A stretch of 18,304 nucleotides of DNA, from the IMG/VR virus record IMGVR_UViG_2529292908_000003; one strand, given 5' to 3'. The position numbers and the translations under genes were made by a program. This DNA comes from a virus. Its lineage: Duplodnaviria; Heunggongvirae; Uroviricota; Caudoviricetes. Shown here one piece after another: positions 209-16,876 of this stretch; the stretch's first letter is position 1, and every line of letters starts with the position of its first letter. Below the pieces are notes generated by a model. It made no database searches. It saw only the letters and a list, made by a program, of their open reading frames with translations, and was not told the DNA's origin.

Positions 209-262
209 CCTGTTTACCTCTTTCTCAGGAAGTTTAGTCTCCAGGATTCCCGGGGCGGTTCA
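1..262 (-). mobile_element. IS3, partial; left terminal inverted repeat ends at 262 and the element continues beyond the window start
   Basis: Reverse complement of 200-262 reads TGAACCGCCCCGGGAATCCTGGAGACTAAACTTCCTGAGAAAGAGGTAAACAGG followed by ATG of orfA, which matches my recollection of the IS3 left end; not search-verified. Confidence 0.8.
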
Positions 263-1024
263 TTTTCGGTCTACAAGTGTGGCTATATGAGAGTTTTTTG
301 TACCTGAGACTAAATCGCCCTCCCAATGCCCCAGAGAGCGTCTGTTATCGATATTTCGGGAACGTTCGTGAATTGGTGTTCCGTTCACTATGTTAATCGT
401 ACCTCTTTCGCCTTTGCGGGTATGACGCCTGCCATGGCGAAGGCTATGCGACCGTCGCAGATGCTGTATATTCAGGTGGTGTAGCGCTTCACGGCTACGA
501 AAGTACAGCGTTTTATAAATTGTCTCAGGTGATATTCGCAGCGTTTTTTGACGTGGTTTTGTTCGCCTTAACCATCCTGATATTTGCTCTGGAGACCATT
601 TCATCTCCAGCATTTCCAGAACAAGCTTTCGCAATGGTAAATTTTGATCCAGTAAGCACGGTTTTGGCCTTTTCGCCATTCTGTTGGCTCGGTTATTAGC
701 ATCAACAGCTTTGTAATAGCGTCTGCCCCGATTACGCTGAACTTCACGTGAGATCGTCGAAGGACTGCGATTCAGCGCAGTAGCTATCGCACGAATGCTC
801 ATTTTGGCTGACAAACCAGCTCGTATCTCCTCGCGCTCAGACAGTGTCAGGTGAGCTACAGCCCGCTTATGCTCATGGGGTTTTATGCCGCCAGTATCCC
901 TTAACATAGTGAAGATCGTTCCGGGTTTTGAACCCAGGATATTCGCTATTTCACTGAAGCCTGTTCCGTTCTTCCATAGTTCAAAAACAGAGGCTTTTTC
1001 CTCTGCTGTAAATGTTCGTCTCAT
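260..1024 (-). pseudogene. insI: IS30 transposase InsI, C-terminally truncated (254 of about 383 codons); stop codon is supplied by the IS3 end
   Basis: ORF translation MRRTFTAEEKASVFELWKNGTGFSEIANILG...HIATLVDRK matches the IS30 transposase N-terminus; reading frame runs straight into the IS3 terminus. Confidence 0.85.
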
Positions 1025-1086
1025 TCAAAAAACCTCCGCAACCCCATGTTTTCACATAACTGTTGCGTTGACCAATTGAATCTACA
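263..1086 (-). mobile_element. IS30 fragment; left inverted repeat at 1061-1086, distal part replaced by the IS3 insertion at 262/263
   Basis: Reverse complement of 1061-1086 is TGTAGATTCAATTGGTCAACGCAACA, the IS30 terminal repeat as I recall it, followed by the InsI start; element is interrupted after transposase codon 254. Confidence 0.85.
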
Positions 1087-1349
1087 GTTGCTTTTTTTAA
1101 TATATCTCGCTCAAGGCGAGCTTCATTTAACGCCTTACGCAGTTGCAGAATTTCAGATTCCAGTTCAGCCACCGTGCGGGAACCAGGAGTACCGAGCCCT
1201 TTTCTGGCGGCGGTAACCCATTGTCCTAAAGTGCCTTCAGGAAGAGATAATCGGGAAGCGCCTTCACTGATCGAAAGTTGATTTTCAAGAACCGTTCTGA
1301 CAGCTTCGGCTTTGAACTCTTTAGAGTAACGTTGGGTTTTTCTGCTCAT
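1087..1349 (-). pseudogene. IS3-family transposase OrfA (HTH subunit), N-terminal 87 codons, truncated by IS30 insertion
   Basis: ATG at 1347-1349 with AGGAG SD; translation MSRKTQRYSKEFKAEAVRTVLENQLSISEGASRLSLPEGTLGQWV...LERDILKKAT has the IS3-family OrfA HTH and leucine-zipper pattern. The 122-aa ORF in the track is a read-through chimera into the IS30 repeat. Confidence 0.7.
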
Positions 1350-1413
1350 TATTAGCTCCTTCTGATGCCATTCTATTTCAGGAAGGAGTGTCCGTTAAAC
1401 TCAGGCTACCTCA
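1087..1413 (-). mobile_element. IS3-family element (IS600-like), left-end fragment interrupted by IS30; outer boundary near 1400-1413 is approximate
   Basis: OrfA-like ORF begins about 64 bp inside a TG...-type terminus (reverse complement of about 1388-1413 reads TGAGGTAGCCTGAGTTTAACGGACACTCC); the orfA frame is broken by the IS30 terminus at 1086/1087. Confidence 0.55.
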
Positions 1414-1429
1414 GCGTATCTCGGCATCA

Positions 1430-3019
1430 ATGCGCAAACAGCCTGATGCCCTTCGCTACGACCGCCAAACTATTTTTGGCCTTGTCCGTGAGCGTCCGAT
1501 CGACATTCACAAAGATCCCGTAGCACTGAACAAATATATCTGCGAATACCTGACGACAAAGGGCGTGTTTGAGAATGAAGAAACAGACCTGGGCACTGTT
1601 GATGTTCTCCAGTCATCAGAAACACAAACTGATGCAGTGGAAACTGAGGTATCTGATATCCCAAAAAATGAAACCGCGCCGGAAGCTGAACCATCTGTAG
1701 AGCGTGAGGGGCCGTTCTATTTCCTCTTCGCAGATAAGGACGGAGAAAAATACGGTCGCGCAAACAAACTCTCTGGTCTGGATAAGGCACTGGCTGCTGG
1801 CGCCACTGAAATCACAAAAGAAGAATATTTTGCCCGAAAAAATGGCACATACACGGGCTTACCGCAAAATGTAGATACCGCTGAAGATTCAGAACAACCA
1901 GAGCCGATAAAAGTTACCGCTGACGAAGTAAACAAAATTATGCAGGCAGCCAATATCAGCCAGCCTGACGCCGATAAGTTGCTTGCTGCATCACGTGGTG
2001 AATTTGTTGAAGGGATTAGTGACCCGAATGATCCGAAATGGGTTAAGGGGCTCCAGACCCGCGATTCTGTGAACCAGAACCAGCATGAATCGGAACGGAA
2101 CTACCAAAAAGCGGAACAAAACAGTCCAAATGCGTTACAAAACGAGCCAGAAACGAAACAGCCTGAACCAGTAGCGCAACAGGAAGTGGAAAAAGTCTGC
2201 ACCGCCTGCGGTCAGACCGGCGGCGGCAACTGCCCTGATTGTGGCGCGGTGATGGGCGACGCAACATACCAAGAAACATTCGATGAAGAGTATCAGGTTG
2301 AAGTTCAGGAAGATGATCCGGAGGAAATGGAAGGCGCTGAACATCCACACAAGGAGAACACTGGCGGCAATCAGCATCACAATAGCGATAATGAAACTGG
2401 CGAGACGGCAGATCACCCAATTAAGGTGAACGGTCATCACGAAATCACATCCACCAGCAGGACGTGTGACCATCTAATGATCGACCTTGAAACCATGGGA
2501 AAAAATCCTGATGCCCCGATCATCTCAATAGGTGCAATATTTTTCGATCCGCAAACCGGAGATATGGGACCGGAATTTAGTAAGACTATCGATCTGGAAA
2601 CTGCTGGCGGAGTCATTGATCGGGACACCATTAAATGGTGGCTTAAGCAATCACGCGAAGCGCAATCTGCCATTATGACCGATGAAATCCCGTTAGATGA
2701 TGCACTGTTACAATTGCGAGAATTTATCGACGAAAACTCCGGTGAATTTTTTGTTCAGGTTTGGGGAAATGGAGCCAACTTCGACAACACGATTTTGCGC
2801 CGTTCATACGAACGGCAGGGGATCCCCTGCCCGTGGCGTTACTACAACGATCGCGATGTACGCACAATCGTTGAGCTGGGGAAAGCCATAGACTTCGATG
2901 CCAGAACGGCTATTCCATTCGAAGGTGAGCGCCATAATGCACTTGATGACGCCCGTTACCAGGCAAAATACGTTTCAGTTATCTGGCAAAAACTGATCCC
3001 GAGTCAGGCTGATTCTTAA
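1430..3019 (+). CDS. Prophage exonuclease with C-terminal DEDDh (DnaQ-like) 3'-5' exonuclease domain, acidic linker and CxxC-x7-CxxC zinc ribbon; 5' end probably truncated by the IS insertion
   Basis: Exo motifs: DLET (motif I), NGANFDNT (motif II), HNALDDARY (motif III, H-x4-D). The track ORF start at 1388 lies inside the IS terminus, so the first usable ATG is 1430. Sits upstream of xis-int as in lambdoid recombination modules. Confidence 0.65.
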   Translation: MRKQPDALRYDRQTIFGLVRERPIDIHKDPVALNKYICEYLTTKGVFENEETDLGTVDVLQSSETQTDAVETEVSDIPKNETAPEAEPSVEREGPFYFLFADKDGEKYGRANKLSGLDKALAAGATEITKEEYFARKNGTYTGLPQNVDTAEDSEQPEPIKVTADEVNKIMQAANISQPDADKLLAASRGEFVEGISDPNDPKWVKGLQTRDSVNQNQHESERNYQKAEQNSPNALQNEPETKQPEPVAQQEVEKVCTACGQTGGGNCPDCGAVMGDATYQETFDEEYQVEVQEDDPEEMEGAEHPHKENTGGNQHHNSDNETGETADHPIKVNGHHEITSTSRTCDHLMIDLETMGKNPDAPIISIGAIFFDPQTGDMGPEFSKTIDLETAGGVIDRDTIKWWLKQSREAQSAIMTDEIPLDDALLQLREFIDENSGEFFVQVWGNGANFDNTILRRSYERQGIPCPWRYYNDRDVRTIVELGKAIDFDARTAIPFEGERHNALDDARYQAKYVSVIWQKLIPSQADS

Positions 3020-3030
3020 TGTTCAACTGT

Positions 3031-3062
3031 CGCCGGTTGTGACTGGTATTCTGCAACCGGCG
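3031..3062 (+). other. Stable stem-loop between the exonuclease gene and xis (9-bp stem CGCCGGTTG/CAACCGGCG, 14-nt loop), no U-tract
   Basis: Perfect 9-bp inverted repeat read directly; function (processing or pause site, weak terminator) is unknown. Confidence 0.3.
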
Positions 3063-3091
3063 CTCGTCTGATGTAAGAGATAAAGAAATCG

Positions 3092-3342
3092 ATGAGCGAA
3101 GTAATCATGATTGTCTCTCCCGGCAAATGGGTATCCGAAGAGCAGTTAATTGCGCTGAAAGGAATAAAAAAGGTACGTTAAAAAAGGCCCGGGAAAAATC
3201 GTTTATGGAAGGAAGGGAATATAAGCATGTCGCTCATGACGGTATGCCATGGGATAACAGTCCATGCTTTTACAACCTGGAAGAAATTGATCGCTGGATT
3301 GAGCGCCAGGCATCAGCGAGACCAAGACGTCATCTTACTTGA
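3092..3342 (+). CDS. Excisionase (Xis)-like gene split across two frames; a -1 shift at A_AAA_AAG (3166-3172) joins a 27-codon N-terminal ORF (3092-3181) to the 56-codon C-terminal frame
   Basis: Joined product MSEVIMIVSPGKWVSEEQLIALKGIKK + GTLKKAREKSFMEGREYKHV...DRWIERQ has the lambda-Xis-like pattern including a GREY motif (lambda Xis DGREYLF), and lies immediately upstream of the integrase. Confidence 0.5.
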
Positions 3343-3361
3343 CTAAAAGCCACACTAACTA

Positions 3362-4657
3362 ATGAGAGAAGTTGAAATGAAATATCCGACAGGCGTGGAA
3401 AACCATGGAGGGAAATTACGTATCTGGTTTGTTTATAAAGACGTAAGAGTCAGGGAAAATCTGGGGGTTCCTGACACAGCAAAAAACAGGCGCGTTGCAG
3501 GTGAACTACGCTCCTCTGTTTGTTACGCAATAAAAACTGGTGTTTTCGACTATGCAAAACAGTTTCCCTCCTCACGCAATCTGGAAAAATTTGGTGAGGC
3601 CCGACAAGATTTAACCATAAAAGAACTGGCTGAAAAATTTCTGGCACTGAAAGAAACTGAAGTCGCCAAAACATCACTCAACACATACCGTGCCGTCATC
3701 AAAAATATCCTGAGCATAATCGGTGAAAAAAATCTTGCCTCATCGATTAATAAAGAAAAATTACTGGAGGTTCGTAAAGAGTTACTGACTGGATACCAGA
3801 TCCCCAAAAGTAACTATATTGTTACACAACCAGGGAGATCGGCTGTAACTGTAAATAATTACATGACAAATCTTAACGCCGTGTTCCAGTTTGGTGTTGA
3901 TAACGGTTACCTGGCAGATAATCCGTTTAAGGGGATCTCGCCATTAAAGGAATCAAGAACCATTCCGGATCCTCTTTCGCGGGAAGAATTTATCCGTCTT
4001 ATCGATGCGTGCAGAAATCAGCAAGCAAAAAATTTATGGTGTGTTTCTGTTTATACTGGAGTTCGCCCTGGTGAGCTGTGTGCACTTGGATGGGAGGACA
4101 TAGATCTGAAAAATGGAACAATGATGATCAGGAGAAATTTAGCAAAAGACCGTTTCACGGTACCAAAAACACAGGCGGGAACCAATCGGGTCATTCATCT
4201 TATTAAGCCAGCAATCGACGCTCTCCGGAGTCAGATGACATTAACGAGACTGAGCAAAGAGCATATCATTGATGTTCACCTCAGAGAGTATGGCAGAACA
4301 GAAAAACAAAAATGCACCTTTGTTTTTCAACCTGAAGTGTCAGCGAGAGTAAAAAATTATGGTGACCATTTTACCGTTGACTCAATAAGGCAGATGTGGG
4401 ACGCAGCGATAAAACGTGCCGGACTCCGCCATCGAAAATCATATCAGTCGAGACATACTTATGCCTGCTGGTCGCTGACAGCTGGTGCTAACCCGGCATT
4501 TATAGCAAACCAGATGGGCCATGCAGATGCGCAAATGGTATTTCAGGTATACGGAAAATGGATGTCTGAAAACAATAATGCACAGGTAGCTTTGTTAAAT
4601 ACACAGTTAAGCGAGTTTGCCCCAACCATGCCCCATAACGAAGCAATGAAAAATTAA
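3362..4657 (+). CDS. Lambdoid prophage tyrosine integrase (corresponds by synteny to the integrase next to rspB in E. coli K-12); alternative start at 3377 (MKYPTGV)
   Basis: 431-aa ORF with N-terminal arm-binding-like region and C-terminal tyrosine recombinase signature (RHTYA box, catalytic-Tyr region QVYGKW); last gene before host DNA. Confidence 0.9.
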   Translation: MREVEMKYPTGVENHGGKLRIWFVYKDVRVRENLGVPDTAKNRRVAGELRSSVCYAIKTGVFDYAKQFPSSRNLEKFGEARQDLTIKELAEKFLALKETEVAKTSLNTYRAVIKNILSIIGEKNLASSINKEKLLEVRKELLTGYQIPKSNYIVTQPGRSAVTVNNYMTNLNAVFQFGVDNGYLADNPFKGISPLKESRTIPDPLSREEFIRLIDACRNQQAKNLWCVSVYTGVRPGELCALGWEDIDLKNGTMMIRRNLAKDRFTVPKTQAGTNRVIHLIKPAIDALRSQMTLTRLSKEHIIDVHLREYGRTEKQKCTFVFQPEVSARVKNYGDHFTVDSIRQMWDAAIKRAGLRHRKSYQSRHTYACWSLTAGANPAFIANQMGHADAQMVFQVYGKWMSENNNAQVALLNTQLSEFAPTMPHNEAMKN

Positions 4658-4796
4658 TTTAATATTTATCAAATAGTTAACACGCATGACTCTTGAAATC
4701 CATAAATTCAAGCGCAGTGCCCAGCCATCCCGATACTGCTGCTTTCACCAAATCCTTAGTGCTTCTTTCGTGTTTTTCTATTGTCATAATGGTTAT

Positions 4797-4831
4797 CTCT
4801 AAAAAAGAGGTAAGATGCGTACTACTTACTC
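4797..4831 (-). terminator. Putative rho-independent terminator of rspB
   Basis: On the minus strand, 13 nt after the rspB stop: stem GAGTAAG / CTTAC(C)TC with a 10-nt loop, followed by UUUUUU (plus-strand A run 4801-4806). Confidence 0.45.
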
Positions 4832-4844
4832 GCCGTTATTGGTA

Positions 4845-5864
4845 TTATTCAGAAAAAGTGAGTAAGACTTTGCAGCAATGTTTTTGATCCTGTTCAAATA
4901 AACTAATGGCATCAGCAACATGCTGGAAATCAAACGTATGGGTAATTAATTTTTCTGGTTTAATTAACCCTTTACTTAACCAGTCGATAACGATCGGGAA
5001 TTTATTTGCATTTAAGCGTGAAGAGAAAATAGAGAGTTCTTTTCCGGTAATTCCTTGCTGAATCACTTCAGACGGTTCACTGGAGAACCCCATCAATACA
5101 ATACGTGCCGCTGGAGAAGCCAGCGTTACGGCCTCTTTCAGGATAGAAGGATGACAAGCCGCATCGATAATTAATGTCGGCTTGATGCCTTTTTCAGTGA
5201 AAATCTCGCCAAGCGGTGTCTGGCTGTTATTAATCGCCCAGTCAGCCCCGCTCTCTTTCGCTTTTTCCAGTCGTTCATCAATGCGATCGGCAACAATCAC
5301 ATTTTTAACGTTATAGACGCCTTTTAATACCTGAACGATCGTCAGGCCGATTGGACCGGCACCATAAACCAGAACGGTATCATTTTCAGTCGGTTGACCA
5401 TGTCCGGTTACGTTAGCCGCAATGGTAAAAGGTTCGATCATTACCGCATATTGATCGGCCACTGCTTCAGGAATTTTCCACGCATTTTTTGCCGGAACCA
5501 CGGCATATTCACTGAAACCACCGTCAGCGTGCACACCTAATACAGCCAGTGTCGTACAAACGTTCGGTTTACCTATAGAGCACGGATAGCAATGCCCACA
5601 GCTGACCACCGGATCGACAGCAACACGTTCACCGACTCTGGCGCTTTCCACGCCTTCACCCACTGCATCAATGACGCCAAAGAATTCATGACCAATGACG
5701 CGCGGATATTTCGCAAAAGGATTATGCCCACGATAAATATGGCTATCTGAACCACAAATTCCGGCAAGTTTCACTTTTACTCGTACTTCACCCGCTGACG
5801 GGGTGGGTATTTCACGTTCGACAATCGCCAGTTGATTCGGTTTTTCAATTAATATGCTTTTCAT
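4845..5864 (-). CDS. rspB: Starvation-sensing protein RspB, Zn-dependent dehydrogenase (MDR family)
   Basis: Translation MKSILIEKPNQLAIVEREIPTPSAGEVRVKVKLAGICGSDSHIYRGHNPF... with GHE and GxGxxG motifs; AGGAG SD before the ATG at 5864; the track ORF has an 8-codon upstream extension. Confidence 0.9.
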   Translation of the reverse strand: MKSILIEKPNQLAIVEREIPTPSAGEVRVKVKLAGICGSDSHIYRGHNPFAKYPRVIGHEFFGVIDAVGEGVESARVGERVAVDPVVSCGHCYPCSIGKPNVCTTLAVLGVHADGGFSEYAVVPAKNAWKIPEAVADQYAVMIEPFTIAANVTGHGQPTENDTVLVYGAGPIGLTIVQVLKGVYNVKNVIVADRIDERLEKAKESGADWAINNSQTPLGEIFTEKGIKPTLIIDAACHPSILKEAVTLASPAARIVLMGFSSEPSEVIQQGITGKELSIFSSRLNANKFPIVIDWLSKGLIKPEKLITHTFDFQHVADAISLFEQDQKHCCKVLLTFSE

Positions 5865-5875
5865 TATCTTACTCC

Positions 5876-7090
5876 TTACCAGTTCCACAGCGTGCCATCT
5901 TCCAGACGTGCGACTGGTAGATAAGCAGGTTCATAGGGATATTTCGCCGCCAGCTTTTCATCGAATTCGATACCAAGACCCGGTTTGTCTCCCGGATGCA
6001 TATAGCCGTTATCGAAAGTCCAGTTGTGCGGGAAGACTTCGAGCATTTGTTCGGAATAACCCATGTATTCCTGGACACCGAAATTGGGGACCCACAGATC
6101 AAAGTGCAGCGCCGCAGCCATGCAGACTGGTGACAAATCGGAAGGACCGTGTGAGCCAGTACGTACCTGATACAGCGAAGCAAAATCGGCAATCCGGCGC
6201 ATACCGGTAATTCCGCCTGCATGGGTCAGCGTGGTGCGGATATAATCGATGAGTTGCTCTTCAATCAGTTGTTTGCAGTCCCAGATGCTGTTGAAGACTT
6301 CACCCACTGCGATGGGTGTGACGGTATGTTGGCGAATGAGACGGAAGCATTCCTGGTTTTCCGCAGGCGTCGGGTCTTCCATCCAGAACATGCGATAATC
6401 TTCAATGCTTTTACCAAAGCGCGCCGCTTCAATAGGCGTTAAGCGATGGTGCATGTCATGCAGCAAATGTTCATTAAAACCAAACTTGTTACGTACCGCG
6501 TCAAACAATTTCGGCATGAAATCGAGGTATTTCTCCGTCGACCACAGCTGCTCTTCCGGCCACTGTCCTTTGGTTGCGGGTTCATAAGCCAGACCTTTAC
6601 CTTTCGACATGCCGTAGGTGGTTTTCATACCAGGGATTCCGCACTGCACGCGGATGGCTTTGAATCCAAGCTCTTGATGACGGGCATAATCATCCAGAGC
6701 TTCATCAATACTGTGACCGGTGGTATGGCAATAAACCATCACCCCTTCACGAGACGCGCCGCCGAGTAACTGGTAAAGCGGCATGTTGGCAGCTTTGGCT
6801 TTAATATCCCACAGCGCCATATCAACCGCTGAAATGGCCGACATCGTAACCGGACCGCGACGCCAGTAAGCACCTTTATAGAAAAACTGCCAGATATCTT
6901 CGATACGGTGCGCATCGCGACCAATAAGCTGCGGACAAAGGTGATCCTGCAAATAAGAGGCCACGGAAAGCTCACGTCCATTGAGGGTGGCATCCCCAAG
7001 GCCCGTAATACCGTCCTCAGTGGTGATTTTTAATGTGACGAAATTACGCCCCGGACAGGTAACAAAAACTTCAGCCTTTACGATCTTCAT
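5876..7090 (-). CDS. rspA: Starvation-sensing protein RspA, enolase-superfamily mannonate dehydratase-like
   Basis: Translation [40 protein letters not shown]...; 11-bp gap to rspB (operon); AGGAA SD; the track ORF has an 11-codon upstream extension. Confidence 0.9.
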
Positions 7091-7295
7091 GTTCGATTCC
7101 TTGCATCGCTTGTCGTGATGCATGAAATCTACGCAACTGAGCTACTACCATACAAGTATAAAGATCGAAAAAAGCCGGAGTGATCACAAAAAAAGGCGTA
7201 TATTTGCGCTGTGAATGGTTGACAAAAGATGAAATAGAATACCTTTTGTCAGCTGACACTTCCTCTTATCTTATTGATAAAATGGATTTATGTTC

Positions 7296-7622
7296 CTACG
7301 TGCGCCCCCAGCCCGCAACAATGATCAACATGCCGCAAAGCGCAATCAACGCACCCGTCCAGTCATAAAGAGTCAGTTTCACGCCATCCACAACGCGCAG
7401 CCACATCAACGCCGTGCAGACATAAACGCCACCATAAGCCGCGTAAACACGCCCACTCGCCGCTGGATGCAACGTTAACAACCAGACAAACAGCGCCAGT
7501 GAAATCCCCGCCGGAAGCAACAGCCAGATACTGGCGTTTCGTTTTAACCACAACCAGGGCAGAAAGCATCCAATAATTTCACACAGCGCAGTAGCAAAAA
7601 ATAGTAACGTTGTTTTAATCAT
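7296..7622 (-). CDS. ynfA: UPF0060 family inner-membrane protein YnfA (four predicted TM helices)
   Basis: 108-aa hydrophobic [48 protein letters not shown]...; position between rspA and ynfB as in E. coli K-12. Confidence 0.85.
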
Positions 7623-7756
7623 CTTTGTCTCTTATTGACATCATGTATAGTTATAGGGCGACATAATATCATCAATATAAACACCCTCCTGGTACGTTTT
7701 GCGTCCGCAGTGGATGGTGTAGAATCACCTTTAATCATTCATACAGGGAATGAATT

Positions 7757-8098
7757 ATGAAAATCACTCTCAGCAAACGAATCGGCCTGCTCGCTATTCT
7801 GCTGCCTTGCGCACTGGCATTGAGCACAACTGTTCATGCCGAAACTAACAAACTGGTGATTGAGTCTGGCGACAGTGCACAAAGCCGCCAGCACGCCGCT
7901 ATGGAAAAAGAGCAATGGAATGACACGCGCAATCTGCGCCAGAAAGTGAATAAACGCACTGAAAAAGAGTGGGATAAAGCCGACGCCGCTTTTGATAACC
8001 GCGATAAATGTGAGCAAAGCGCCAACATCAATGCCTACTGGGAGCCCAATACTTTGCGCTGCCTGGACCGTCGAACTGGCCGCGTTATTACCCCCTAA
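7757..8098 (+). CDS. ynfB: Secreted small protein YnfB (UPF0482) with N-terminal signal peptide
   Basis: [30 protein letters not shown]... signal peptide; AGGGAA SD; 34 bp upstream of speG. Confidence 0.85.
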
Positions 8099-8132
8099 CC
8101 TGTTATTGATTTAAGGAATGTAAGGACACGTT

Positions 8133-8693
8133 ATGCCAAGCGCCCACAGTGTTAAGCTACGCCCGCTGGAGCGTGAAGATTTACGCTATGTACATCAACT
8201 CGACAATAACGCCAGTGTGATGCGTTACTGGTTTGAGGAACCCTACGAAGCCTTTGTTGAACTCTCTGATCTGTATGATAAGCATATTCACGATCAGAGC
8301 GAACGGCGCTTTGTGGTGGAATGTGACGGCGAAAAAGCCGGTCTGGTGGAGCTGGTGGAAATTAACCATGTTCATCGCCGCGCAGAATTTCAGATAATTA
8401 TCTCCCCGGAGTATCAGGGGAAAGGTCTGGCAACCCGTGCCGCCAAATTAGCAATGGACTATGGCTTTACCGTTCTCAATCTCTATAAGCTGTATCTGAT
8501 CGTTGATAAAGAGAATGAAAAAGCGATTCACATTTACCGCAAGCTTGGCTTTTCGGTTGAAGGTGAATTGATGCACGAGTTCTTTATTAATGGTCAATAT
8601 CGTAATGCCATTCGCATGTGTATATTCCAGCATCAGTATCTGGCAGAGCACAAAACACCGGGTCAGACTCTCCTGAAGCCGACCGCACAATAG
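8133..8693 (+). CDS. speG: Spermidine N1-acetyltransferase SpeG (GNAT family)
   Basis: 186-aa translation [41 protein letters not shown]... matches SpeG from memory. Confidence 0.92.
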
Positions 8694-8695
8694 CA

Positions 8696-9406
8696 TTAAT
8701 AATAATCGATCGTATTTTTGATGGTGTAAACCCGTTCGACGGCGGGTTTTACTCCTTCATCAACAATGATTAGCTGACAGTCCACCGGATTAGCGTGACT
8801 GTCATATTCACAGCTCTGTTTTACATTACCAACCCGTTGATTATTCAGTAAAGTAACCGCTGTGTAATCTAATTTTTTGATCGGATCCGTTGATGGCGTG
8901 GCGCTGACAGATAATGTTTTGTCGTTACTTTTCGTGGTTTTACCCAGCGGATAACCCTGATCATCATAGCGATATTCCATCTGCATTTGTTTGCTGCTGG
9001 CTTTAATCACGAAGCCATTATCATCGGTTTCCCAACTCACCCCGGCAGAAGGTAATTCTGCTAGCTGGCATTTTCCCTGTAAACGTACTCTCTTCTCCAG
9101 CGTCTCGGCATCACGGTAATAATTGGCGTCCAGTACCAGAGCGACCACGGTATTATTTTCCAGATCCAGTAATTCGAGTGAATCAAAACAGCCTTCTTCC
9201 GACAAAGTCCCAGAAACACGTTTCGTCACTTCACCTTGCTCATCCATTAATGTCTGAGTGAAATCTTTTACCGGACCACGCAGCGGATCAAAATCGAATT
9301 CATTAGAGAAACTGGCCATCTCAGGGGTAAATGAAAGTGTTACCTCTGTGCGGTCACATCCTGTGAGGAATATCGCGAGTAAGCATGGTAGTAATTTGTA
9401 TTTCAC
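8696..9406 (-). CDS. ynfC: Lipoprotein YnfC (UPF0257), GTG start
   Basis: From GTG at 9404-9406 the product begins (M)KYKLLPCLLAIFLTGCDR with a lipobox LTGC; GGTGA SD 5 nt upstream. The ATG at 9442 in the track would put 12 residues ahead of the signal peptide. Confidence 0.8.
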   Translation of the reverse strand: MKYKLLPCLLAIFLTGCDRTEVTLSFTPEMASFSNEFDFDPLRGPVKDFTQTLMDEQGEVTKRVSGTLSEEGCFDSLELLDLENNTVVALVLDANYYRDAETLEKRVRLQGKCQLAELPSAGVSWETDDNGFVIKASSKQMQMEYRYDDQGYPLGKTTKSNDKTLSVSATPSTDPIKKLDYTAVTLLNNQRVGNVKQSCEYDSHANPVDCQLIIVDEGVKPAVERVYTIKNTIDYY

Positions 9407-9513
9407 AACAGTCACCAGAGAGTAGAGATGATTCTCAATCATAGTAGCAAATACAGTACTTTACACGTTAAATGCTATGCTTAAAGAAGTTATCTTCGCG
9501 TAAGGAGCTTATG

Positions 9514-9819
9514 ATGAAACTCTCAACCTGCTGTGCCGCGCTTCTGCTCGCCCTCGCCTCACCCGCGGTACTCGCCGCGCCGGGATCCTGTGAGCGCATA
9601 CAGAGCGATATATCACAGCGCATTATCAATAATGGCGTACCCGAAAGCAGCTTCACGTTAAGTATTGTACCCAATGACCAGGTTGATCAGCCTGATTCCC
9701 AGGTCGTCGGCCATTGCGCTAATGATACGCATAAAATTCTCTATACCCGCACCACCAGCGGTAACGTCTCTGCTCCCGCGCAGTCTAGCCAGGATGGCGC
9801 GCCTGCCGAACCGCAGTAA
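9514..9819 (+). CDS. ynfD: Secreted small protein YnfD (DUF1161) with signal peptide
   Basis: MKLSTCCAALLLALASPAVLAAPGSCERIQSDISQRIINNGVPE...; AAGGAG SD 6 nt before ATG 9514; upstream in-frame ATGs lack good spacing. Confidence 0.85.
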   Translation: MKLSTCCAALLLALASPAVLAAPGSCERIQSDISQRIINNGVPESSFTLSIVPNDQVDQPDSQVVGHCANDTHKILYTRTTSGNVSAPAQSSQDGAPAEPQ

Positions 9820-9836
9820 CACATTATCGACTGAAC

Positions 9837-9858
9837 GCCGGATATGACAAATCCGGCG
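9837..9858 (+). terminator. Hairpin after ynfD (8-bp stem CGCCGGAT/ATCCGGCG, 6-nt loop) with a weak U-tract; possible terminator
   Basis: Perfect inverted repeat 17 nt after the ynfD stop, followed by AUUUGAA. Confidence 0.35.
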
Positions 9859-9904
9859 ATTTGAACATACAACATAATCCCACCTTATTACTCATACCCT
9901 TCTA

Positions 9905-9918
9905 TTGATATGGATTAA
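9905..9918. promoter_or_regulatory. Candidate FNR box TTGAT-atgg-ATTAA upstream of ynfE
   Basis: 9 of 10 match to the FNR consensus TTGAT-N4-ATCAA, centred about 106 bp upstream of the ynfE ATG; TAGACT -10-like hexamer about 24 bp downstream. ynfEFGH is reported as anaerobically expressed. Confidence 0.4.
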
Positions 9919-10017
9919 TAATTCTTAACCCAAAATGGGTAGACTCCCTCTATTGTTAGCGCGCTAAATATTCAATATATAAACTTTTATATAACGATAA
10001 AGAACAGGGAGTGAGTT

Positions 10018-12444
10018 ATGTCCAAAAATGAACGAATGGTGGGCATCAGCCGCAGAACACTCGTTAAATCTACCGCGATAGGTTCTCTGGCGCTGGCTGC
10101 AGGCGGTTTTTCTTTGCCGTTTACCCTGCGCAATGCAGCAGCAGCGGTACAACAGGCCCGCGAAAAAGTGGTCTGGGGTGCCTGTTCCGTCAACTGTGGT
10201 AGCCGCTGTGCACTTCGTCTACATGTTAAAGATAATGAAGTGACCTGGGTGGAAACTGACAATACCGGCAGCGATGAGTACGGCAACCATCAGGTACGCG
10301 CCTGTTTGCGCGGTCGCTCCATCCGCCGGCGTATTAATCATCCCGATCGCTTAAATTACCCAATGAAACGCGTGGGCAAACGCGGCGAAGGCAAATTCGA
10401 ACGGATTAGCTGGGATGAAGCCCTGGATACTATCGCCAGTAGCCTGAAGAAAACCGTCGAACAATATGGCAATGAGGCTGTATATATTCAGTACTCTTCG
10501 GGGATCGTTGGCGGCAATATGACCCGCTCTTCGCCATCAGCCTCGGCGGTCAAACGCCTGATGAACTGCTACGGCGGTTCACTCAACCAGTATGGCTCCT
10601 ACAGCACTGCGCAAATTTCCTGTGCCATGCCCTACACCTACGGCAGTAATGATGGCAACAGCACCACGGATATTGAAAACAGCAAGCTGGTCGTGATGTT
10701 TGGTAACAACCCGGCAGAAACCCGCATGAGCGGTGGTGGCATCACTTATCTTCTTGAAAAAGCGCGCGAGAAATCGAACGCCAAAATGATTGTTATCGAT
10801 CCGCGATATACCGATACGGCTGCCGGTCGTGAAGACGAATGGCTCCCTATTCGCCCGGGCACCGATGCCGCGCTGGTTGCGGGTATTGCCTGGGTATTGA
10901 TTAACGAAAATCTCGTTGATCAACCTTTTCTCGATAAATACTGCGTCGGCTATGACGAAAAAACCTTACCCGCAGATGCACCCAAAAATGGTCACTATAA
11001 AGCCTATATTCTTGGTGAAGGTGACGATAAAACAGCGAAAACGCCGCAGTGGGCTTCGCAAATTACCGGTATCCCGGAGGACCGTATCATCAAACTGGCG
11101 CGTGAAATTGGCACAGCAAAACCCGCTTATATCTGCCAGGGCTGGGGGCCACAACGCCAGGCAAACGGCGAACTGACTGCACGCGCTATTGCTATGTTAC
11201 CTATTTTGACGGGCAATGTCGGCATCAGCGGCGGAAATAGTGGCGCGCGTGAATCGACCTATACCATTACCATAGAACGCCTGCCGGTGCTGGATAATCC
11301 GGTCAAAACGTCAATCTCCTGCTTCAGCTGGACAGATGCTATCGATCATGGTCCGCAAATGACGGCAATCCGCGACGGCGTCCGCGGCAAAGATAAACTG
11401 GATGTGCCCATTAAGTTCATCTGGAACTACGCGGGAAATACCCTCGTTAATCAGCATTCTGACATCAACAAAACGCATGAAATTCTGCAGGACGAATCGA
11501 AATGCGAAATGATTGTGGTCATCGAAAACTTTATGACCTCATCGGCAAAATATGCCGACATTCTGCTGCCAGACCTGATGACCGTTGAGCAGGAAGATAT
11601 TATTCCTAACGACTACGCCGGTAACATGGGATATCTCATTTTCCTCCAGCCTGTCACCAGCGAAAAATTCGAACGCAAACCGATTTACTGGATCCTGAGT
11701 GAAGTCGCGAAACGTCTTGGACCTGACGTCTATCAAAAGTTCACAGAAGGTCGCACGCAGGAACAATGGTTACAACATCTGTACGCCAAAATGCTTGCCA
11801 AAGATCCGGCGTTACCGTCTTACGACGAACTGAAAAAAATGGGTATCTATAAGCGTAAAGATCCCAATGGCCATTTTGTCGCCTACAAAGCATTTCGTGA
11901 CGACCCCGAGGCAAATCCACTTAAAACGCCTTCCGGTAAGATTGAAATTTATTCCAGCAGGCTGGCGGAAATTGCCCGTACCTGGGAACTGGAAAAAGAT
12001 GAAGTGATAAGCCCATTGCCAGTTTATGCCTCAACCTTTGAAGGCTGGAACTCCCCTGAACGTAGAACCTTCCCACTGCAACTGTTTGGTTTCCATTACA
12101 AATCCCGTACTCACTCGACCTACGGCAATATTGATCTCCTGAAGGCTGCCTGCCGTCAGGAGGTGTGGATCAACCCTATAGATGCGCAGAAACGTGGGAT
12201 TGCCAACGGCGATATGGTGCGGGTGTTTAACCATCGTGGCGAAGTTCGGCTACCAGCCAAAGTAACACCACGTATTCTCCCTGGAGTTAGCGCTATGGGC
12301 CAGGGAGCCTGGCACGAGGCCAATATGTCTGGCGATAAAATCGACCATGGCGGCTGTGTGAATACGCTAACCACTCTGCGCCCTTCACCACTGGCGAAGG
12401 GAAACCCGCAGCACACTAATCTGGTCGAGATCGAAAAAATATAA
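10018..12444 (+). CDS. ynfE: Tat-exported molybdopterin oxidoreductase catalytic subunit YnfE (DMSO reductase family, putative selenate reductase)
   Basis: 808-aa ORF; twin-arginine signal ISRRTLVKSTAIGSLALAAGG; N-terminal Cys cluster CSVNCGSRC; GGGAG SD. Confidence 0.93.
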   Translation: MSKNERMVGISRRTLVKSTAIGSLALAAGGFSLPFTLRNAAAAVQQAREKVVWGACSVNCGSRCALRLHVKDNEVTWVETDNTGSDEYGNHQVRACLRGRSIRRRINHPDRLNYPMKRVGKRGEGKFERISWDEALDTIASSLKKTVEQYGNEAVYIQYSSGIVGGNMTRSSPSASAVKRLMNCYGGSLNQYGSYSTAQISCAMPYTYGSNDGNSTTDIENSKLVVMFGNNPAETRMSGGGITYLLEKAREKSNAKMIVIDPRYTDTAAGREDEWLPIRPGTDAALVAGIAWVLINENLVDQPFLDKYCVGYDEKTLPADAPKNGHYKAYILGEGDDKTAKTPQWASQITGIPEDRIIKLAREIGTAKPAYICQGWGPQRQANGELTARAIAMLPILTGNVGISGGNSGARESTYTITIERLPVLDNPVKTSISCFSWTDAIDHGPQMTAIRDGVRGKDKLDVPIKFIWNYAGNTLVNQHSDINKTHEILQDESKCEMIVVIENFMTSSAKYADILLPDLMTVEQEDIIPNDYAGNMGYLIFLQPVTSEKFERKPIYWILSEVAKRLGPDVYQKFTEGRTQEQWLQHLYAKMLAKDPALPSYDELKKMGIYKRKDPNGHFVAYKAFRDDPEANPLKTPSGKIEIYSSRLAEIARTWELEKDEVISPLPVYASTFEGWNSPERRTFPLQLFGFHYKSRTHSTYGNIDLLKAACRQEVWINPIDAQKRGIANGDMVRVFNHRGEVRLPAKVTPRILPGVSAMGQGAWHEANMSGDKIDHGGCVNTLTTLRPSPLAKGNPQHTNLVEIEKI

Positions 12445-12504
12445 CCCACGACAACCATAAATTCTGGCATGACATTTTGTTTGAAAAGCAATAAGTGAGT
12501 AATG

Positions 12505-14928
12505 ATGAAAATCCATACCACAGAGGCGCTCATGAAGGCTGAAATCAGCCGTAGAAGTCTGATGAAAACCTCCGCACTTGGCAGTCTTGCGCTGGCAAGC
12601 AGTGCTTTCACTCTGCCATTTTCCCAAATGGTCCGGGCGGCAGAGGCTCCGGTAGAAGAGAAAGCGGTCTGGAGTTCCTGCACCGTTAACTGCGGGAGCC
12701 GCTGTCTGTTACGTTTGCATGTGAAAGATGACACCGTGTACTGGGTGGAGTCTGATACGACAGGTGACGACGTCTACGGTAATCATCAGGTTCGAGCGTG
12801 TTTACGCGGGCGCTCTATCCGCCGACGGATGAATCATCCTGATAGGTTGAAATATCCCATGAAGCGCGTCGGCAAGCGCGGTGAAGGTAAATTTGAACGG
12901 ATAAGTTGGGACGAAGCCCTGGATACCATCAGTGATAATCTTCGGCGGATCCTGAAAGATTACGGCAATGAGGCTGTACATGTCCTGTACGGAACAGGCG
13001 TAGATGGCGGAAACATCACCAACTCAAACGTCCCGTACCGTCTGATGAACTCTTGCGGTGGTTTTCTCAGTCGCTATGGCAGCTACAGTACCGCACAGAT
13101 CAGTGCCGCAATGAGTTATATGTTCGGTGCCAATGATGGCAACAGCCCGGATGATATCGCCAATACGAAACTGGTCGTTATGTTCGGAAATAACCCGGCA
13201 GAAACGCGGATGAGCGGCGGTGGTGTCACTTACTACGTCGAGCAAGCCCGCGAACGTTCAAACGCACGCATGATCGTCATCGATCCACGTTATAACGACA
13301 CTGCTGCCGGGCGTGAAGATGAATGGCTGCCCATTCGCCCTGGCACCGATGGCGCACTGGCCTGTGCGATTGCCTGGGTACTGATTACTGAAAACATGGT
13401 CGATCAGCCATTTCTCGACAAATATTGTGTTGGTTACGATGAAAAAACGCTGCCCGCCAACGCACCACGTAACGCGCATTATAAAGCCTATATTCTGGGC
13501 GAAGGGCCTGACGGCATAGCTAAAACGCCGGAATGGGCAGCAAAAATCACCAGCATCCCGGCAGAAAAAATTATCCAGTTGGCACGAGAGATCGGTTCAG
13601 CAAAACCTGCTTATATTTGTCAGGGTTGGGGGCCACAACGACATTCCAACGGCGAGCAAACATCCCGCGCTATTGCCATGCTTTCCGTTCTCACCGGCAA
13701 CGTCGGCATAAACGGCGGCAACTCAGGCGTACGCGAAGGTAGCTGGGATCTGGGGGTAGAATGGTTCCCGATGCTCGAGAATCCTGTTAAAACGCAGATT
13801 TCCGTCTTTACATGGACAGATGCCATCGACCATGGTACGGAAATGACCGCGACCCGTGATGGTGTTCGTGGAAAAGAAAAACTGGATGTCCCCATCAAGT
13901 TTTTATGGTGCTACGCCAGTAACACATTGATCAATCAACATGGCGACATCAATCACACCCATGAGGTGCTTCAGGATGACAGCAAGTGCGAGATGATTGT
14001 TGGCATTGACCACTTCATGACGGCCTCGGCTAAGTATTGCGATATCCTGTTGCCCGACCTGATGCCAACAGAGCAAGAAGACCTTATCTCTCATGAATCT
14101 GCAGGGAATATGGGCTATGTGATCCTCGCCCAACCCGCAACCTCAGCAAAATTTGAACGCAAACCCATCTACTGGATGCTGAGTGAAGTCGCCAAACGCT
14201 TAGGACCAGACGTTTATCAAACCTTTACTGAAGGTCGCAGTCAGCATGAATGGATCAAATATCTCCATGCGAAAACGAAGGAACGTAACCCTGAGATGCC
14301 CGACTACGAGGAGATGAAAACGACCGGGATCTTTAAGAAAAAATGCCCGGAAGAACACTACGTCGCTTTCCGCGCATTCCGTGAAGATCCACAGGCAAAC
14401 CCGTTGAAAACACCTTCGGGGAAAATCGAAATTTATTCTGAACGACTGGCGAAGATTGCAGATACCTGGGAATTGAAAAAAGATGAAATTATTCATCCCC
14501 TTCCTGCGTATACCCCAGGTTTTGATGGCTGGGACGATCCCCTGCGGAAAACCTATCCACTGCAGTTAACGGGCTTCCATTACAAAGCGCGTACCCACTC
14601 CAGCTACGGCAATATTGATGTGTTACAGCAGGCCTGCCCACAAGAGGTGTGGATCAACCCCATTGATGCTCAGGCACGCGGTATCCGTCATGGCGATACC
14701 GTGCGGGTATTTAACAATAATGGAGAAATGCTGATTGCCGCAAAAGTGACTCCGCGTATTCTGCCTGGCGTTACCGCCATCGGGCAAGGTGCGTGGCTTA
14801 AAGCGGATATGTTTGGTGACCGGGTCGATCACGGCGGCAGTATCAATATTCTGACCTCTCACCGCCCTTCACCGCTGGCAAAGGGAAACCCGTCGCACAG
14901 CAATCTTGTCCAGATCGAAAAGGTTTAA
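12505..14928 (+). CDS. ynfF: Tat-exported molybdopterin oxidoreductase YnfF, paralog of YnfE
   Basis: 807 aa from the second ATG (SD AGTGAG 5 nt upstream); Tat motif ISRRSLMK; high similarity to YnfE throughout. Confidence 0.93.
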   Translation: MKIHTTEALMKAEISRRSLMKTSALGSLALASSAFTLPFSQMVRAAEAPVEEKAVWSSCTVNCGSRCLLRLHVKDDTVYWVESDTTGDDVYGNHQVRACLRGRSIRRRMNHPDRLKYPMKRVGKRGEGKFERISWDEALDTISDNLRRILKDYGNEAVHVLYGTGVDGGNITNSNVPYRLMNSCGGFLSRYGSYSTAQISAAMSYMFGANDGNSPDDIANTKLVVMFGNNPAETRMSGGGVTYYVEQARERSNARMIVIDPRYNDTAAGREDEWLPIRPGTDGALACAIAWVLITENMVDQPFLDKYCVGYDEKTLPANAPRNAHYKAYILGEGPDGIAKTPEWAAKITSIPAEKIIQLAREIGSAKPAYICQGWGPQRHSNGEQTSRAIAMLSVLTGNVGINGGNSGVREGSWDLGVEWFPMLENPVKTQISVFTWTDAIDHGTEMTATRDGVRGKEKLDVPIKFLWCYASNTLINQHGDINHTHEVLQDDSKCEMIVGIDHFMTASAKYCDILLPDLMPTEQEDLISHESAGNMGYVILAQPATSAKFERKPIYWMLSEVAKRLGPDVYQTFTEGRSQHEWIKYLHAKTKERNPEMPDYEEMKTTGIFKKKCPEEHYVAFRAFREDPQANPLKTPSGKIEIYSERLAKIADTWELKKDEIIHPLPAYTPGFDGWDDPLRKTYPLQLTGFHYKARTHSSYGNIDVLQQACPQEVWINPIDAQARGIRHGDTVRVFNNNGEMLIAAKVTPRILPGVTAIGQGAWLKADMFGDRVDHGGSINILTSHRPSPLAKGNPSHSNLVQIEKV

Positions 14929-14938
14929 GGAGTAGCCC

Positions 14939-15051
14939 ATGACCACACAATATGGATTTTTATCGATTCCAGCCGCTGTACTGGCTGTAAAACCTGCGAA
15001 CTGGCGTGCAAAGATTTTAAAGTTGGTTACGTATCGTTTAAAATCAATTAG
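14939..15051 (+). pseudogene. ynfG: ynfG remnant (4Fe-4S ferredoxin subunit): frameshift in a T5 run at 14957-14961, then truncation about 26 codons in
   Basis: ATG 14939 gives MTTQYGF; the ferredoxin motif IDSSRCTGCKTCELACKD lies in the +1 frame with no start codon, ends at TAG 15049-15051, and is followed by unrelated DNA. YnfG is about 205 aa in K-12 (recalled). Confidence 0.7.
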
Positions 15052-15095
15052 ATAGCCCGTCATTTCTGCGCTCACACGTCCCAACATTGAAAAAC

Positions 15096-15129
15096 ATGCA
15101 AAGCTTTGTAAGCCGATGCAAAGCTTTGT
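15096..15129. promoter_or_regulatory. Two copies of a 14-bp repeat ATGCAAAGCTTTGT, each containing the perfect 10-bp palindrome CAAAGCTTTG, spaced 20 bp centre to centre; operator-like
   Basis: Palindromes at 15099-15108 and 15119-15128, read directly; two-helical-turn spacing is typical of a dimeric repressor operator pair. Confidence 0.4.
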
Positions 15130-15215
15130 GTGTCTCACTTTTGTCCCAATACCAATCCGAATCCACCCTTTGTCATCATTGAGAAATGGCAAGGAAGAAA
15201 AGGATGTTACTGCAC

Positions 15216-15248
15216 GATTTGACAAATCCGCCAGAGCTATCGCATACT
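15216..15248 (+). promoter_or_regulatory. Promoter-like module A: palindrome GATTTGACAAATC overlapping a consensus -35 TTGACA (15219-15224), 18-bp spacer, -10-like CATACT
   Basis: 16-bp GATTTGACAAATCCGC is identical to 16628-16643; consensus -35; weak -10. Confidence 0.4.
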
Positions 15249-15266
15249 GACCGCACTACAACGTCA

Positions 15267-15302
15267 GCGGTCAACCGCACCCGATAGCTTTGCGGCTTTT
15301 TT
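15267..15302 (+). terminator. Attenuator/terminator-like element A: GCGG-tcaa-CCGC-(12 nt)-GCGG-c-UUUUUU
   Basis: Three short complementary segments allowing alternative pairings, followed by T6; same layout as 16692-16726. Confidence 0.4.
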
Positions 15303-15407
15303 ATGCCTGTTTACAGGTATCGCCATATCAATGGCGGGTCGAGAGAGCCTAATACAATACCCTTTCGGGAAATACGCTCCGCCGTCTGACGCGGTAGTTG
15401 AAGCCCG

Positions 15408-15416
15408 CCCCCCCCC
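15408..15416. repeat. Homopolymeric C9 tract about 40 bp upstream of the antirepressor-like gene A start
   Basis: Nine consecutive C at 15408-15416 (preceded by GCCCG), within the 5' leader of gene A. Confidence 0.9.
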
Positions 15417-15458
15417 ACTAAGGTGGCAGTCAATACTAAAACGTCAGGAGTCATAATT

Positions 15459-15743
15459 ATGACTAATCAACTCATTCCCGTTTTCGATGGAACCATCAAC
15501 AACGAACCAGTTTTACTTTGCAATGCTCGCAATCTGCACGCTTTTCTTGGTATTGGTAAAATGTTTGCTCACTGGATCAAGGACAGGCTGGGTGAATATG
15601 GATTCGTTGAAAATCAAGATTTTGTGATTGCTTGCCAAAATTGGCAAGCAAAAGGTAGAGGCGGTCACAACCGCAAGGAATACCACCTCACCCTCGACAC
15701 AGCCAAAGAGCTTGCGATGGTTGACGACTGCGTCCAATACTGA
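15459..15743 (+). CDS. Antirepressor-like protein, AntA-type N-terminal domain only (truncated paralog of the gene at 15993)
   Basis: AGGAG SD 8 nt before ATG 15459; product MTNQLIPVFDGTINNEPVLLCNARNLHAFLG...HLTLDTAKELAMV is about 60 percent identical to the N-terminus of the next gene, then diverges and stops; 44 bp (15681-15724) are identical to 16209-16252. Confidence 0.6.
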   Translation: MTNQLIPVFDGTINNEPVLLCNARNLHAFLGIGKMFAHWIKDRLGEYGFVENQDFVIACQNWQAKGRGGHNRKEYHLTLDTAKELAMVDDCVQY

Positions 15744-15790
15744 CTATACTCCGCGCCGAGGCCTCGAAAACCTCCCAAAAGCGGATTAAA

Positions 15791-15816
15791 CCAACCCCGT
15801 CAGTGTTGGATTTTTT
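15791..15816 (+). terminator. Putative intrinsic terminator after gene A (stem CCAAC/GTTGG, loop CCCGTCAGT, then A-UUUUUU)
   Basis: Hairpin plus T6, 48 bp after the gene A stop; loop sequence CCCGTCAGT recurs at 16704-16712. Confidence 0.45.
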
Positions 15817-15992
15817 ATGCCTGTTATTCAGTGATAGCACAGTGTGCGGTCACATCCCCGATCAATGTCGGGAGGGCGACGAATACAACACCCGCAAGGG
15901 GAATAAGTCCGCGGTATCTTTTGGGCCGTTTCGAGCCTCCCGGCACCACATCTTGTGGTGGCATTTCTCGAAAAAAGCCAAAGGAGGTCATC

Positions 15993-16622
15993 ATGACCAC
16001 TCAACTCATCCCTGTGTTTGAAGGTACAATCTCAAATGAACCTACGCTTCTGGTGAACGCGCGTGATTTGCATGGATTTTTAGAGGTAGGTAAAGATTTT
16101 TCTAACTGGATACGGGCCAGGCTAAACGAGTATGGATTCGTAGAAAATTTAGACTACATTCTATTTTCGCCAAATTTGGCGAAAACTCCAGGCCGCCGCC
16201 GCAAGGATTACCACCTCACCCTCGACACAGCCAAAGAGCTTGCGATGGTTGAACGTAACGAAAAAGGCCGCCAGATACGCCGCTACTTCATCGAGTGCGA
16301 AAAGAAACTTCGCAACATTCAGCCAGTACAAGCAGAACCACAGCCGCAATTCACAGCCGAGGAAATCATCCTCCTTTGCTACATGCAGCTCTGGATGGAA
16401 AAAGCCCAGGACATCAGCAAACACCTGTATCCCATTATGAAAGAGCTGAACTCCTCATACACGAACAAGCTGTATGACATTGCGTTTGAGACCATCTACA
16501 TGGTGACGAAGAACAGAGACGCGCTACTGAGGGAGGTAACACGTCTCGACATGTCAAGTTCCGTTATCCAGCGGGCCATGCCAATGCTGAAAAGCCTGCG
16601 GGCAAGACAATTCGAGTTTTAA
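15993..16622 (+). CDS. Phage antirepressor-like protein (AntA-type N-terminal domain plus a C-terminal domain shared with the gene at 16877)
   Basis: AGGAGG SD 5 nt before ATG 15993; MTTQLIPVFEGTISNEPTLLVNARDLHGFLEVGKDFSNWIRARLNEYGFVE...HLTLDTAKELAMVERNEKGRQIRRYFIE, and a C-terminus PQFTAEEIILLCYMQLWMEKAQ...LRARQFEF shared with the next gene. The track's 54-codon upstream extension has no RBS. Confidence 0.75.
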   Translation: MTTQLIPVFEGTISNEPTLLVNARDLHGFLEVGKDFSNWIRARLNEYGFVENLDYILFSPNLAKTPGRRRKDYHLTLDTAKELAMVERNEKGRQIRRYFIECEKKLRNIQPVQAEPQPQFTAEEIILLCYMQLWMEKAQDISKHLYPIMKELNSSYTNKLYDIAFETIYMVTKNRDALLREVTRLDMSSSVIQRAMPMLKSLRARQFEF

Positions 16623-16627
16623 GGCCA

Positions 16628-16660
16628 GATTTGACAAATCCGCATTAACGGGGATATATT
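16628..16660 (+). promoter_or_regulatory. Promoter-like module C: palindrome GATTTGACAAATC with -35 TTGACA (16631-16636), 18-bp spacer, -10 TATATT (16655-16660)
   Basis: Consensus -35, 5 of 6 -10; 16-bp identity with module A; begins 6 bp after the gene B stop. Confidence 0.5.
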
Positions 16661-16691
16661 CCGCTCCATGGTGCTGAACACACCTTCGAAA

Positions 16692-16726
16692 GCGGAAACC
16701 GCGCCCGTCAGTCATGCGGATTTTTT
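16692..16726 (+). terminator. Attenuator/terminator-like element C: GCGG-aaa-CCGC-(13 nt, containing CCCGTCAGT)-GCGG-a-UUUUUU
   Basis: Same three-segment layout as 15267-15302 despite different intervening sequence; T6 at 16721-16726. Confidence 0.4.
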
Positions 16727-16876
16727 ATGTCCATTTTTCAGATATGGTCGGGTAGCGCGTATACCGAAAAACAGCCGTAAGGCTAAGGATGCGGGCCGAA
16801 CTTTCGACGGTGTTCAAGTACCCGACCGCCCTGCTGAACACGGGGTGATCTGAACGAATCGAAAGGACATAAAACT

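Follow-up and report, generated by a model that had tools for sequence, protein, structure and literature searches.

Within the PF06806 (DUF1233) family of putative excisionases, the member with experimentally shown activity is a distant one, XisR (YdaQ) of the Rac prophage in Escherichia coli K-12, which induces excision of Rac and binds attR (PMC4632033). XisR is similar in size to the protein considered here and is likewise encoded 5' of an integrase gene, but it is intact, belongs to a different prophage with a different attachment site, and shares only 26% identity over 62 residues. Far closer are the gene encoding WP_000005552.1, found in the Qin-type prophages adjacent to rspB, and the excisionase genes of phages HannyBb and PhiR42_1, all of which have the same nucleotide sequence as the copy described here except in the length of one run of adenines. 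The WP_000005552.1 gene also shares its start, its stop, and its position directly 5' of the integrase gene. Where these genes carry seven adenines (A7), the copy here carries six (A6) and is split as a result. A more distant relative is the Klebsiella pneumoniae putative excisionase whose structure was determined by NMR (2KVV), with about 22% identity and a profile match that spans residues 6-73. Lambda Xis is also a small basic protein whose gene lies 5' of int, and it has a local GREY motif in common with the protein studied here. The first-pass annotation had drawn on this resemblance, but as homology it did not hold up, since hhalign aligned only 7 columns around GREY with a probability of 1%, and lambda Xis was not retrieved in PDB profile or fold searches with the protein encoded here.

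The point at which the copy is split carries the heptamer A_AAA_AAG, which is identical to the heptamer of the -1 ribosomal frameshifting sites of dnaX and IS3/IS911 and stands in the same X_XXY_YYZ register. At those sites, A_AAA_AAG is accompanied by an upstream Shine-Dalgarno (SD) sequence and a downstream hairpin or pseudoknot. In the correct frame, A_AAA_AAG belongs to the E. coli motifs most prone to shifting, highly so when stimulated; SD-like sequences were taken as stimulatory when located 6-17 nt ahead of the motif's second base, and heptamers without a stimulator reached 2.1-10 times a background of 0.055% (Sharma et al. 2014, PMC4066793). In contrast to dnaX and IS3/IS911, the site here is without a conserved two-ORF layout, a downstream structure, or an SD at 6-17 nt. 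Its likeness to the dnaX and IS3 sites is a mutational accident.

The window, meaning the whole 18,304-nt stretch of E. coli-type DNA that was analyzed, contains the following features at this locus:

3092..3342, + strand: the whole xis pseudogene, a PF06806/DUF1233 excisionase gene with a 1-bp deletion
3092..3181, + strand: ORF1, the N-terminal fragment of xis, with 27 authentic codons, then 2 that are out of frame, then TAA
3127..3342, + strand: ORF2 as called mechanically, 71 aa, its first 15 codons being out-of-frame sequence
3166..3171, + strand: the A6 run, site of the deletion, which together with G3172 gives A_AAA_AAG in the ORF1 frame
3172..3342, + strand: the C-terminal 56 codons of xis and the stop, in the -1 frame, which form the in-frame portion of ORF2
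3180..3186, + strand: a second A_AAA_AAG (TTA AAA AAG) in the downstream authentic frame, coding for the LKK of GTLKK

When the sequence is read directly, ORF1 runs ATG(3092) AGC GAA ... CTG AAA GGA ATA AAA AAG GTA CGT TAA(3179-3181). In the list of ORFs, its translation is 29 aa long (MSEVIMIVSPGKWVSEEQLIALKGIKKVR), while ORF2, whose frame is -1 to that of ORF1, gives 71 aa (MGIRRAVNCAERNKKGTLKKAREK...RRHLT). The first-pass annotation had described an ORF from ATG 3092 to TAA 3179-3181 and a second one at 3127-3342 in its -1 frame, with the heptamer between them, and our reading of the sequence and the ORF list agrees with this. AAAAAAG occupies 3166-3172 and is read ATA AAA AAG in the ORF1 frame, and therefore stands as A_AAA_AAG in the X_XXY_YYZ register; the zero-frame stop comes 2 codons past the heptamer, after GTA CGT; and a -1 shift at this position is correct, in reading-frame terms, as a way of restoring a full-length protein. 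The one figure that needs amendment is the length of ORF1, which had been given as 27 codons. ORF1 has 29 sense codons, and 27 is right only as the number that enter the joined protein. The change of frame between ORF1 and ORF2 coincides exactly with A_AAA_AAG at 3166-3172, and the protein obtained by joining them there has 83 aa (MSEVIMIVSPGKWVSEEQLIALKGIKK followed by GTLKKAREK...RRHLT).

In Pfam, the joined 83-aa protein scores 108.1 bits (cut-off 22) with PF06806 (DUF1233, putative excisionase), its residues 5-73 aligning to positions 1-69 of the 70 in the profile. This near-complete match bears out the earlier description of the joined protein as excisionase-like. The 29-aa peptide of ORF1 alone matches PF06806 positions 1-23 (24.5 bits), and ORF2 alone places its residues 14-61 on positions 22-69. 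Since positions 1-23 and 22-69 adjoin, the two ORFs make up abutting halves of a single domain, well beyond what chance would give. An NCBIfam search found no model matching the joined protein, and a literature search for excisionase together with DUF1233 found no paper.

In an alignment of 21 family members, with identity down to 53%, LKGIKKGTLKKAR (junction LKGIKKGTLKK) is kept in one frame, and G24, G28, and K31 are invariant or nearly so. The family profile aligns to 2KVV over residues 6-73 with E = 1.3e-6. An AlphaFold2 model of the joined protein, of moderate confidence (mean pLDDT 75.4, pTM 0.60), has a strand at 13-15, helices at 16-23 and 29-36, strands at 44-46 and 59-62, and a helix at 63-72. 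The top PDB match of this moderate-confidence model in Foldseek is again 2KVV (probability 1.00, E = 6e-3, TM 0.57-0.60), which is supportive of the small helix-turn-helix with a beta wing expected of the family. In the predicted fold, the point where the frame breaks (residue 27/28) lies in the turn separating helix 1 and helix 2. Because the junction sits between these two helices, ORF2 alone, should it be translated, would be left without strand 1 and helix 1, while ORF1 yields a 29-aa stub, and we infer that the truncated products are inactive. Members of this family are expected to have an uninterrupted frame of about 70-85 codons and a co-oriented tyrosine integrase gene directly downstream at the end of the prophage. 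The integrase gene is present here, in the same layout as in relatives, but the change from A7 to A6 interrupts the frame after codon 27. The xis copy here is a pseudogene of a PF06806/DUF1233 member.

The K-12 Rac XisR sequence was considered as an identity for the 71-aa ORF and rejected, since XisR is another PF06806 member with 26% identity. Judged by sequence, the xis gene in the window is a broken member of the family and no orthologue of xisR. Among the records examined, the PGAP symbol 'xisR' sits on frameshifted or truncated copies and not on intact 83-aa copies. Because K-12 Rac XisR is only 26% identical, this symbol is misleading and reflects a transfer of naming, not orthology.

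The length of the A-run in relatives distinguishes between the two readings that the first-pass annotation had offered, namely a one-base deletion from an ancestral A7 run that left a pseudogene, or a programmed frameshift by which the dose of excisionase is set. A 321-nt query found a match in 2663 of the 5426 complete E. coli genomes, in most cases over 322 nt. Alleles were counted with queries of 86-88 nt that differ only in the A-run, and among the 2577 matching complete E. coli genomes, exact matches were found to A7 in 2476, to A6 in 9, and to A8 in 0. The A7 version is a single 83-codon ORF, annotated in strain HB-Coli0 as the excisionase family protein WP_000005552.1. Copies in strain 190 and IAI39 have the same start and end as the one here, and PGAP describes them as 'excisionase family protein, frameshifted'. 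The DNA of the isolated phage HannyBb has A7 (ATA AAA AAA GGT), and tblastn recovered the excisionases of HannyBb and PhiR42_1 in a single frame, both with 100% identity to the joined 83 aa. The homologue was in one tblastn piece in 153 of 153 matching phage records, and the copy in Escherichia ruysiae also has A7. In more diverged genera, the junction is ATT AAA AAG GGG (Leclercia), ATC AAA AAG GGG (Raoultella), TTG AAA GAA GGA (Silvania), or CTG AAG GAA GGC (Scandinavium), in each case within a single ORF and without an in-register X_XXY_YYZ. The Shigella flexneri copy, which has A6 and two further frameshifts, is evidently a pseudogene. A contig labelled as a MAG of Veillonella parvula (JAGZPX010000007.1) carries an E. 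coli-type prophage xis with A7 and a translation 100% identical to the joined protein; in all likelihood it stems from Enterobacterales and was mis-binned.

A comparison of this kind had been proposed in the first-pass annotation, and its outcome, an intact A7 gene in relatives with no conservation of the heptamer, favors a mutation over programmed frameshifting. The deletion reading is upheld by the preponderance of A7 over A6 (2476 versus 9 of 2577 genomes) and by the presence of A7 in E. ruysiae and HannyBb. The dosage reading has to be given up, as relatives are single-frame, the heptamer is unconserved when they are diverged, and a stimulatory element is absent. We accordingly consider it very probable that this is an ordinary one-base-deletion pseudogene in a PF06806/DUF1233 xis, with no programmed frameshift.

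Homopolymer under-calling is a common sequencing error, and a strain that is truly A7 could have had one A dropped from the run by the sequencing chemistry. Some A6 records do lie beside other genes called 'frameshifted', with four such genes in 12 kb in ET791 and one frameshifted neighbor each in strain 190 and Z1814, and a few A6 records, such as that of ET791, are possibly sequencing errors. For the window itself, the comparison with the A7 strain HB-Coli0 argues against this explanation, with 36 substitutions and a single gap over 4969 nt and no other indel in that span. A6 is also present in GCA_000176535.2 (scaffold GL883782.1), a draft assembly of independent origin that is 99.98% identical to the window over 5430 nt. 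Ten further contigs, likewise independent, that code for precisely the 71-aa ORF have it as well, as do IAI39 and four genomes related to it, which come from different projects. Because an independent assembly with 99.98% identity has the same run length, the A6 in the window is probably a true allele rather than a read error, and an artefact of sequencing or assembly appears very unlikely. The supposition that a two-ORF layout with A_AAA_AAG evolved to set the dose of Xis can point to a canonical heptamer in the correct frame, to a -1 product that is a complete PF06806 domain, and to the strongly shift-prone nature of A_AAA_AAG when stimulated (PMC4066793). Set against this are the rarity of the two-ORF layout, found in just 9 of 2577 genomes while 2476 have a single ORF, and the single ORF without the heptamer in diverged relatives. 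The signals that would be expected around such a site also fail to appear. The 80 nt downstream of the heptamer fold at -10.1 kcal/mol, worse than the mean of -14.9 kcal/mol for shuffled sequences (z = +1.76), with 193 of 200 shuffles folding as well or better, so that this region contains no downstream hairpin, as the first reading of the sequence had already suggested.

The only SD-like sequence is an AGGA at 3160-3163, which, in line with the spacing reported previously, ends 2 nt before the first base of the heptamer and 3 nt before the second. Since it is only 3 nt from the heptamer's second base, outside the stimulatory interval of 6-17 nt (PMC4066793), the AGGA would not be stimulatory. 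In Rfam, the window gave just two matches, both to sRNA-Xcc1 at other sites and neither to a recoding element, and constructs without a stimulator gave shifting at only 2-10 times the 0.055% background (PMC4066793). Because neither the two-frame layout nor the heptamer is conserved among homologues, programmed -1 frameshifting is refuted as an explanation, and we regard it as extremely improbable. A further proposal would be that ORF2 (71 aa from ATG 3127; peptide MGIRRAVNCAER...) is expressed as a functional excisionase or regulator with an altered N-terminus. It retains PF06806 positions 22-69 and is predicted by gene callers, and at least 24 contigs have precisely this protein among their calls. 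Residues 1-15, though, derive from out-of-frame sequence, and ORF2 is without strand 1 and helix 1 of both the predicted fold and the 2KVV alignment. Reading of the sequence found no Shine-Dalgarno-like element before ATG 3127 (...TCTCTCCCGGCAA ATG), and this form is absent from all diverged relatives in the 21-member alignment. We give a functional ORF2 product virtually no credence.

The preferred reading, a deletion in an A7 gene, leads to the matter of how often this allele has arisen. IAI39, CE10, AR_0013, N32, and AF57 have A6 on one background, with an exonuclease gene cut by IS629 and the same integrase allele, and A6 has been inherited in at least this one lineage of five genomes. Other backgrounds with A6 are those of strain 190, MSHS 472, ET791, O157:H7 (Z1814, with only 95% flank identity), and Shigella flexneri. 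In a neighbor-joining tree of xis and int, the A6 and A7 alleles are intermixed; with few informative sites and an over-sampling of A6, this tree shows mixing and not counts of events. Since A6 occurs on several haplotype backgrounds mixed with A7, the deletion looks recurrent, and the simplest reading of these sequences would be the repeated loss of one A at a homopolymer, with inheritance in some lineages. For the under-representation of A7, a high rate of indel mutation has been proposed as one possible reason (Sharma et al. 2014, PMC4066793). The asymmetry between 9 A6 and 0 A8 alleles could be a hint of selection, the numbers being small.

A_AAA_AAG is by itself not rare in the window, where 11 occur on both strands against 5.1 expected. 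One of these is the second heptamer at 3180-3186, 14 nt downstream of the first, on which the first-pass annotation had been silent. This second run was A6 in 24 of 24 loci in which run lengths were read, and diverged relatives have CTA AAG AAG, CTG AAG AAG, or TTA AAG AAC at this site. In the intact A7 gene, slippage at the second A_AAA_AAG or at A_AAA_AAA would lead into a short dead-end frame. For the A6 allele, rescue by -1 slippage is expected to amount to roughly 0.5% or less, because heptamers without a stimulator give 2.1-10 times 0.055% (PMC4066793). Some functional read-through of the A6 allele is possible.

The surroundings of xis are those of a prophage in decay, and the features that flank it are:

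260..1349, - strand: IS fragments bordering the prophage remnant, with partial matches to NCBIfam NF033563 and NF033516
1413..3019, + strand: prophage 3'-5' exonuclease gene with a PF16473 match, its 5' part lost to IS
3362..4657, + strand: tyrosine integrase gene, intact, with PF12167 Arm DNA-binding and PF00589 matches, directly 3' of xis
4845..5888, - strand: rspB, a chromosomal gene that flanks the integrase end, annotated as rspB at the same relative position in relatives

According to PGAP the integrase starts at ATG 3377, giving 426 aa, and it is annotated as a site-specific integrase in relatives. rspB and rspA adjoin the integrase side, which is the position of a Qin-type lambdoid prophage in E. 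coli. On the other side, a fragment of an IS30-family transposase gene (260-1024, - strand) lies beside or inside a fragment of an IS3-family orfA (981-1349, - strand). Bases 1-262 of the window have an IS629-type likeness, and 1-1412 as a whole are nested IS debris. This debris removes roughly the first 288 codons of the exonuclease gene, which is cut at 1412/1413 and in its intact form in HB-Coli0 measures 2472 bp. Similarity to other genomes begins at 1413, and the best complete E. coli matches cover 1413-18304, none of them identical. The prophage is a degraded, cryptic lambdoid remnant integrated next to rspB. That IS elements have cut the exonuclease gene next to xis fits a prophage in decay.

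A separate mobile element is found toward the other end of the window. At about 14930-18304, ynfG, the gene for a 4Fe-4S subunit that follows ynfF, is truncated by an inserted element; in strain TOE17 (99.7% identical), only an 84-bp remnant of ynfG is present in the PGAP annotation. The cargo of this element includes an AntA gene that is truncated (15423-15743), two complete antirepressor genes, a gene for a TraR/DksA zinc-finger protein (17557-17778), and a DUF4752 gene (17775-18092). The Rfam family sRNA-Xcc1 (RF02221) has matches at 15867-15952 and 16746-16835 on the + strand, scoring 73 and 68 bits where the gathering score is 53. Just 3' of each match, an AntA/Bro-type antirepressor gene (15831-16622 and 16877-17509) has its likely ATG, as though sRNA-Xcc1 were a conserved 5' leader of these two genes.

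Under the reading of a one-base-deletion pseudogene, the ancestral xis was one ORF of 83 codons in which Ile-Lys-Lys-Gly was written ATA AAA AAA GGT. The loss of one A from A7 shifted the frame after codon 27 and brought in a stop two codons on, and the remainder of xis survives only as the tail of an ORF that begins at the out-of-frame ATG 3127. The A_AAA_AAG did not evolve as a recoding signal but came about as a by-product when a base was deleted within two lysine codons. Unstimulated -1 slippage of tRNA-Lys, or slippage of RNA polymerase, could remake a trace of the wild-type protein at most, and the product of a -1 slip would equal that of the A7 gene exactly.

That copies with the same A6 stretch are frameshifted is already known, as public annotation flags them in this way. 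The locus here should be labelled a frameshifted excisionase pseudogene of a decaying prophage remnant beside rspB, and no protein should be called from the 71-aa ORF. This case also calls for caution in scans for recoding sites, since a perfect A_AAA_AAG at the junction of two ORFs arises trivially from the A7 of two lysine codons minus one base. The decisive test for such junctions is conservation across relatives.

A more speculative idea is that the A7 tract acts as a hypermutable on/off switch, in which the recurrent change to A6 locks a useful cryptic prophage in place while -1 slippage, which still yields a little authentic Xis, throttles its excision without abolishing it. The recurrence of A6 on several backgrounds, the absence of A8, and the identity of the slip product with the wild-type protein are all compatible with such a switch, which we nevertheless hold to be a long shot. 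Such a switch, if real, would offer a further and simple mechanism by which prophages are domesticated.
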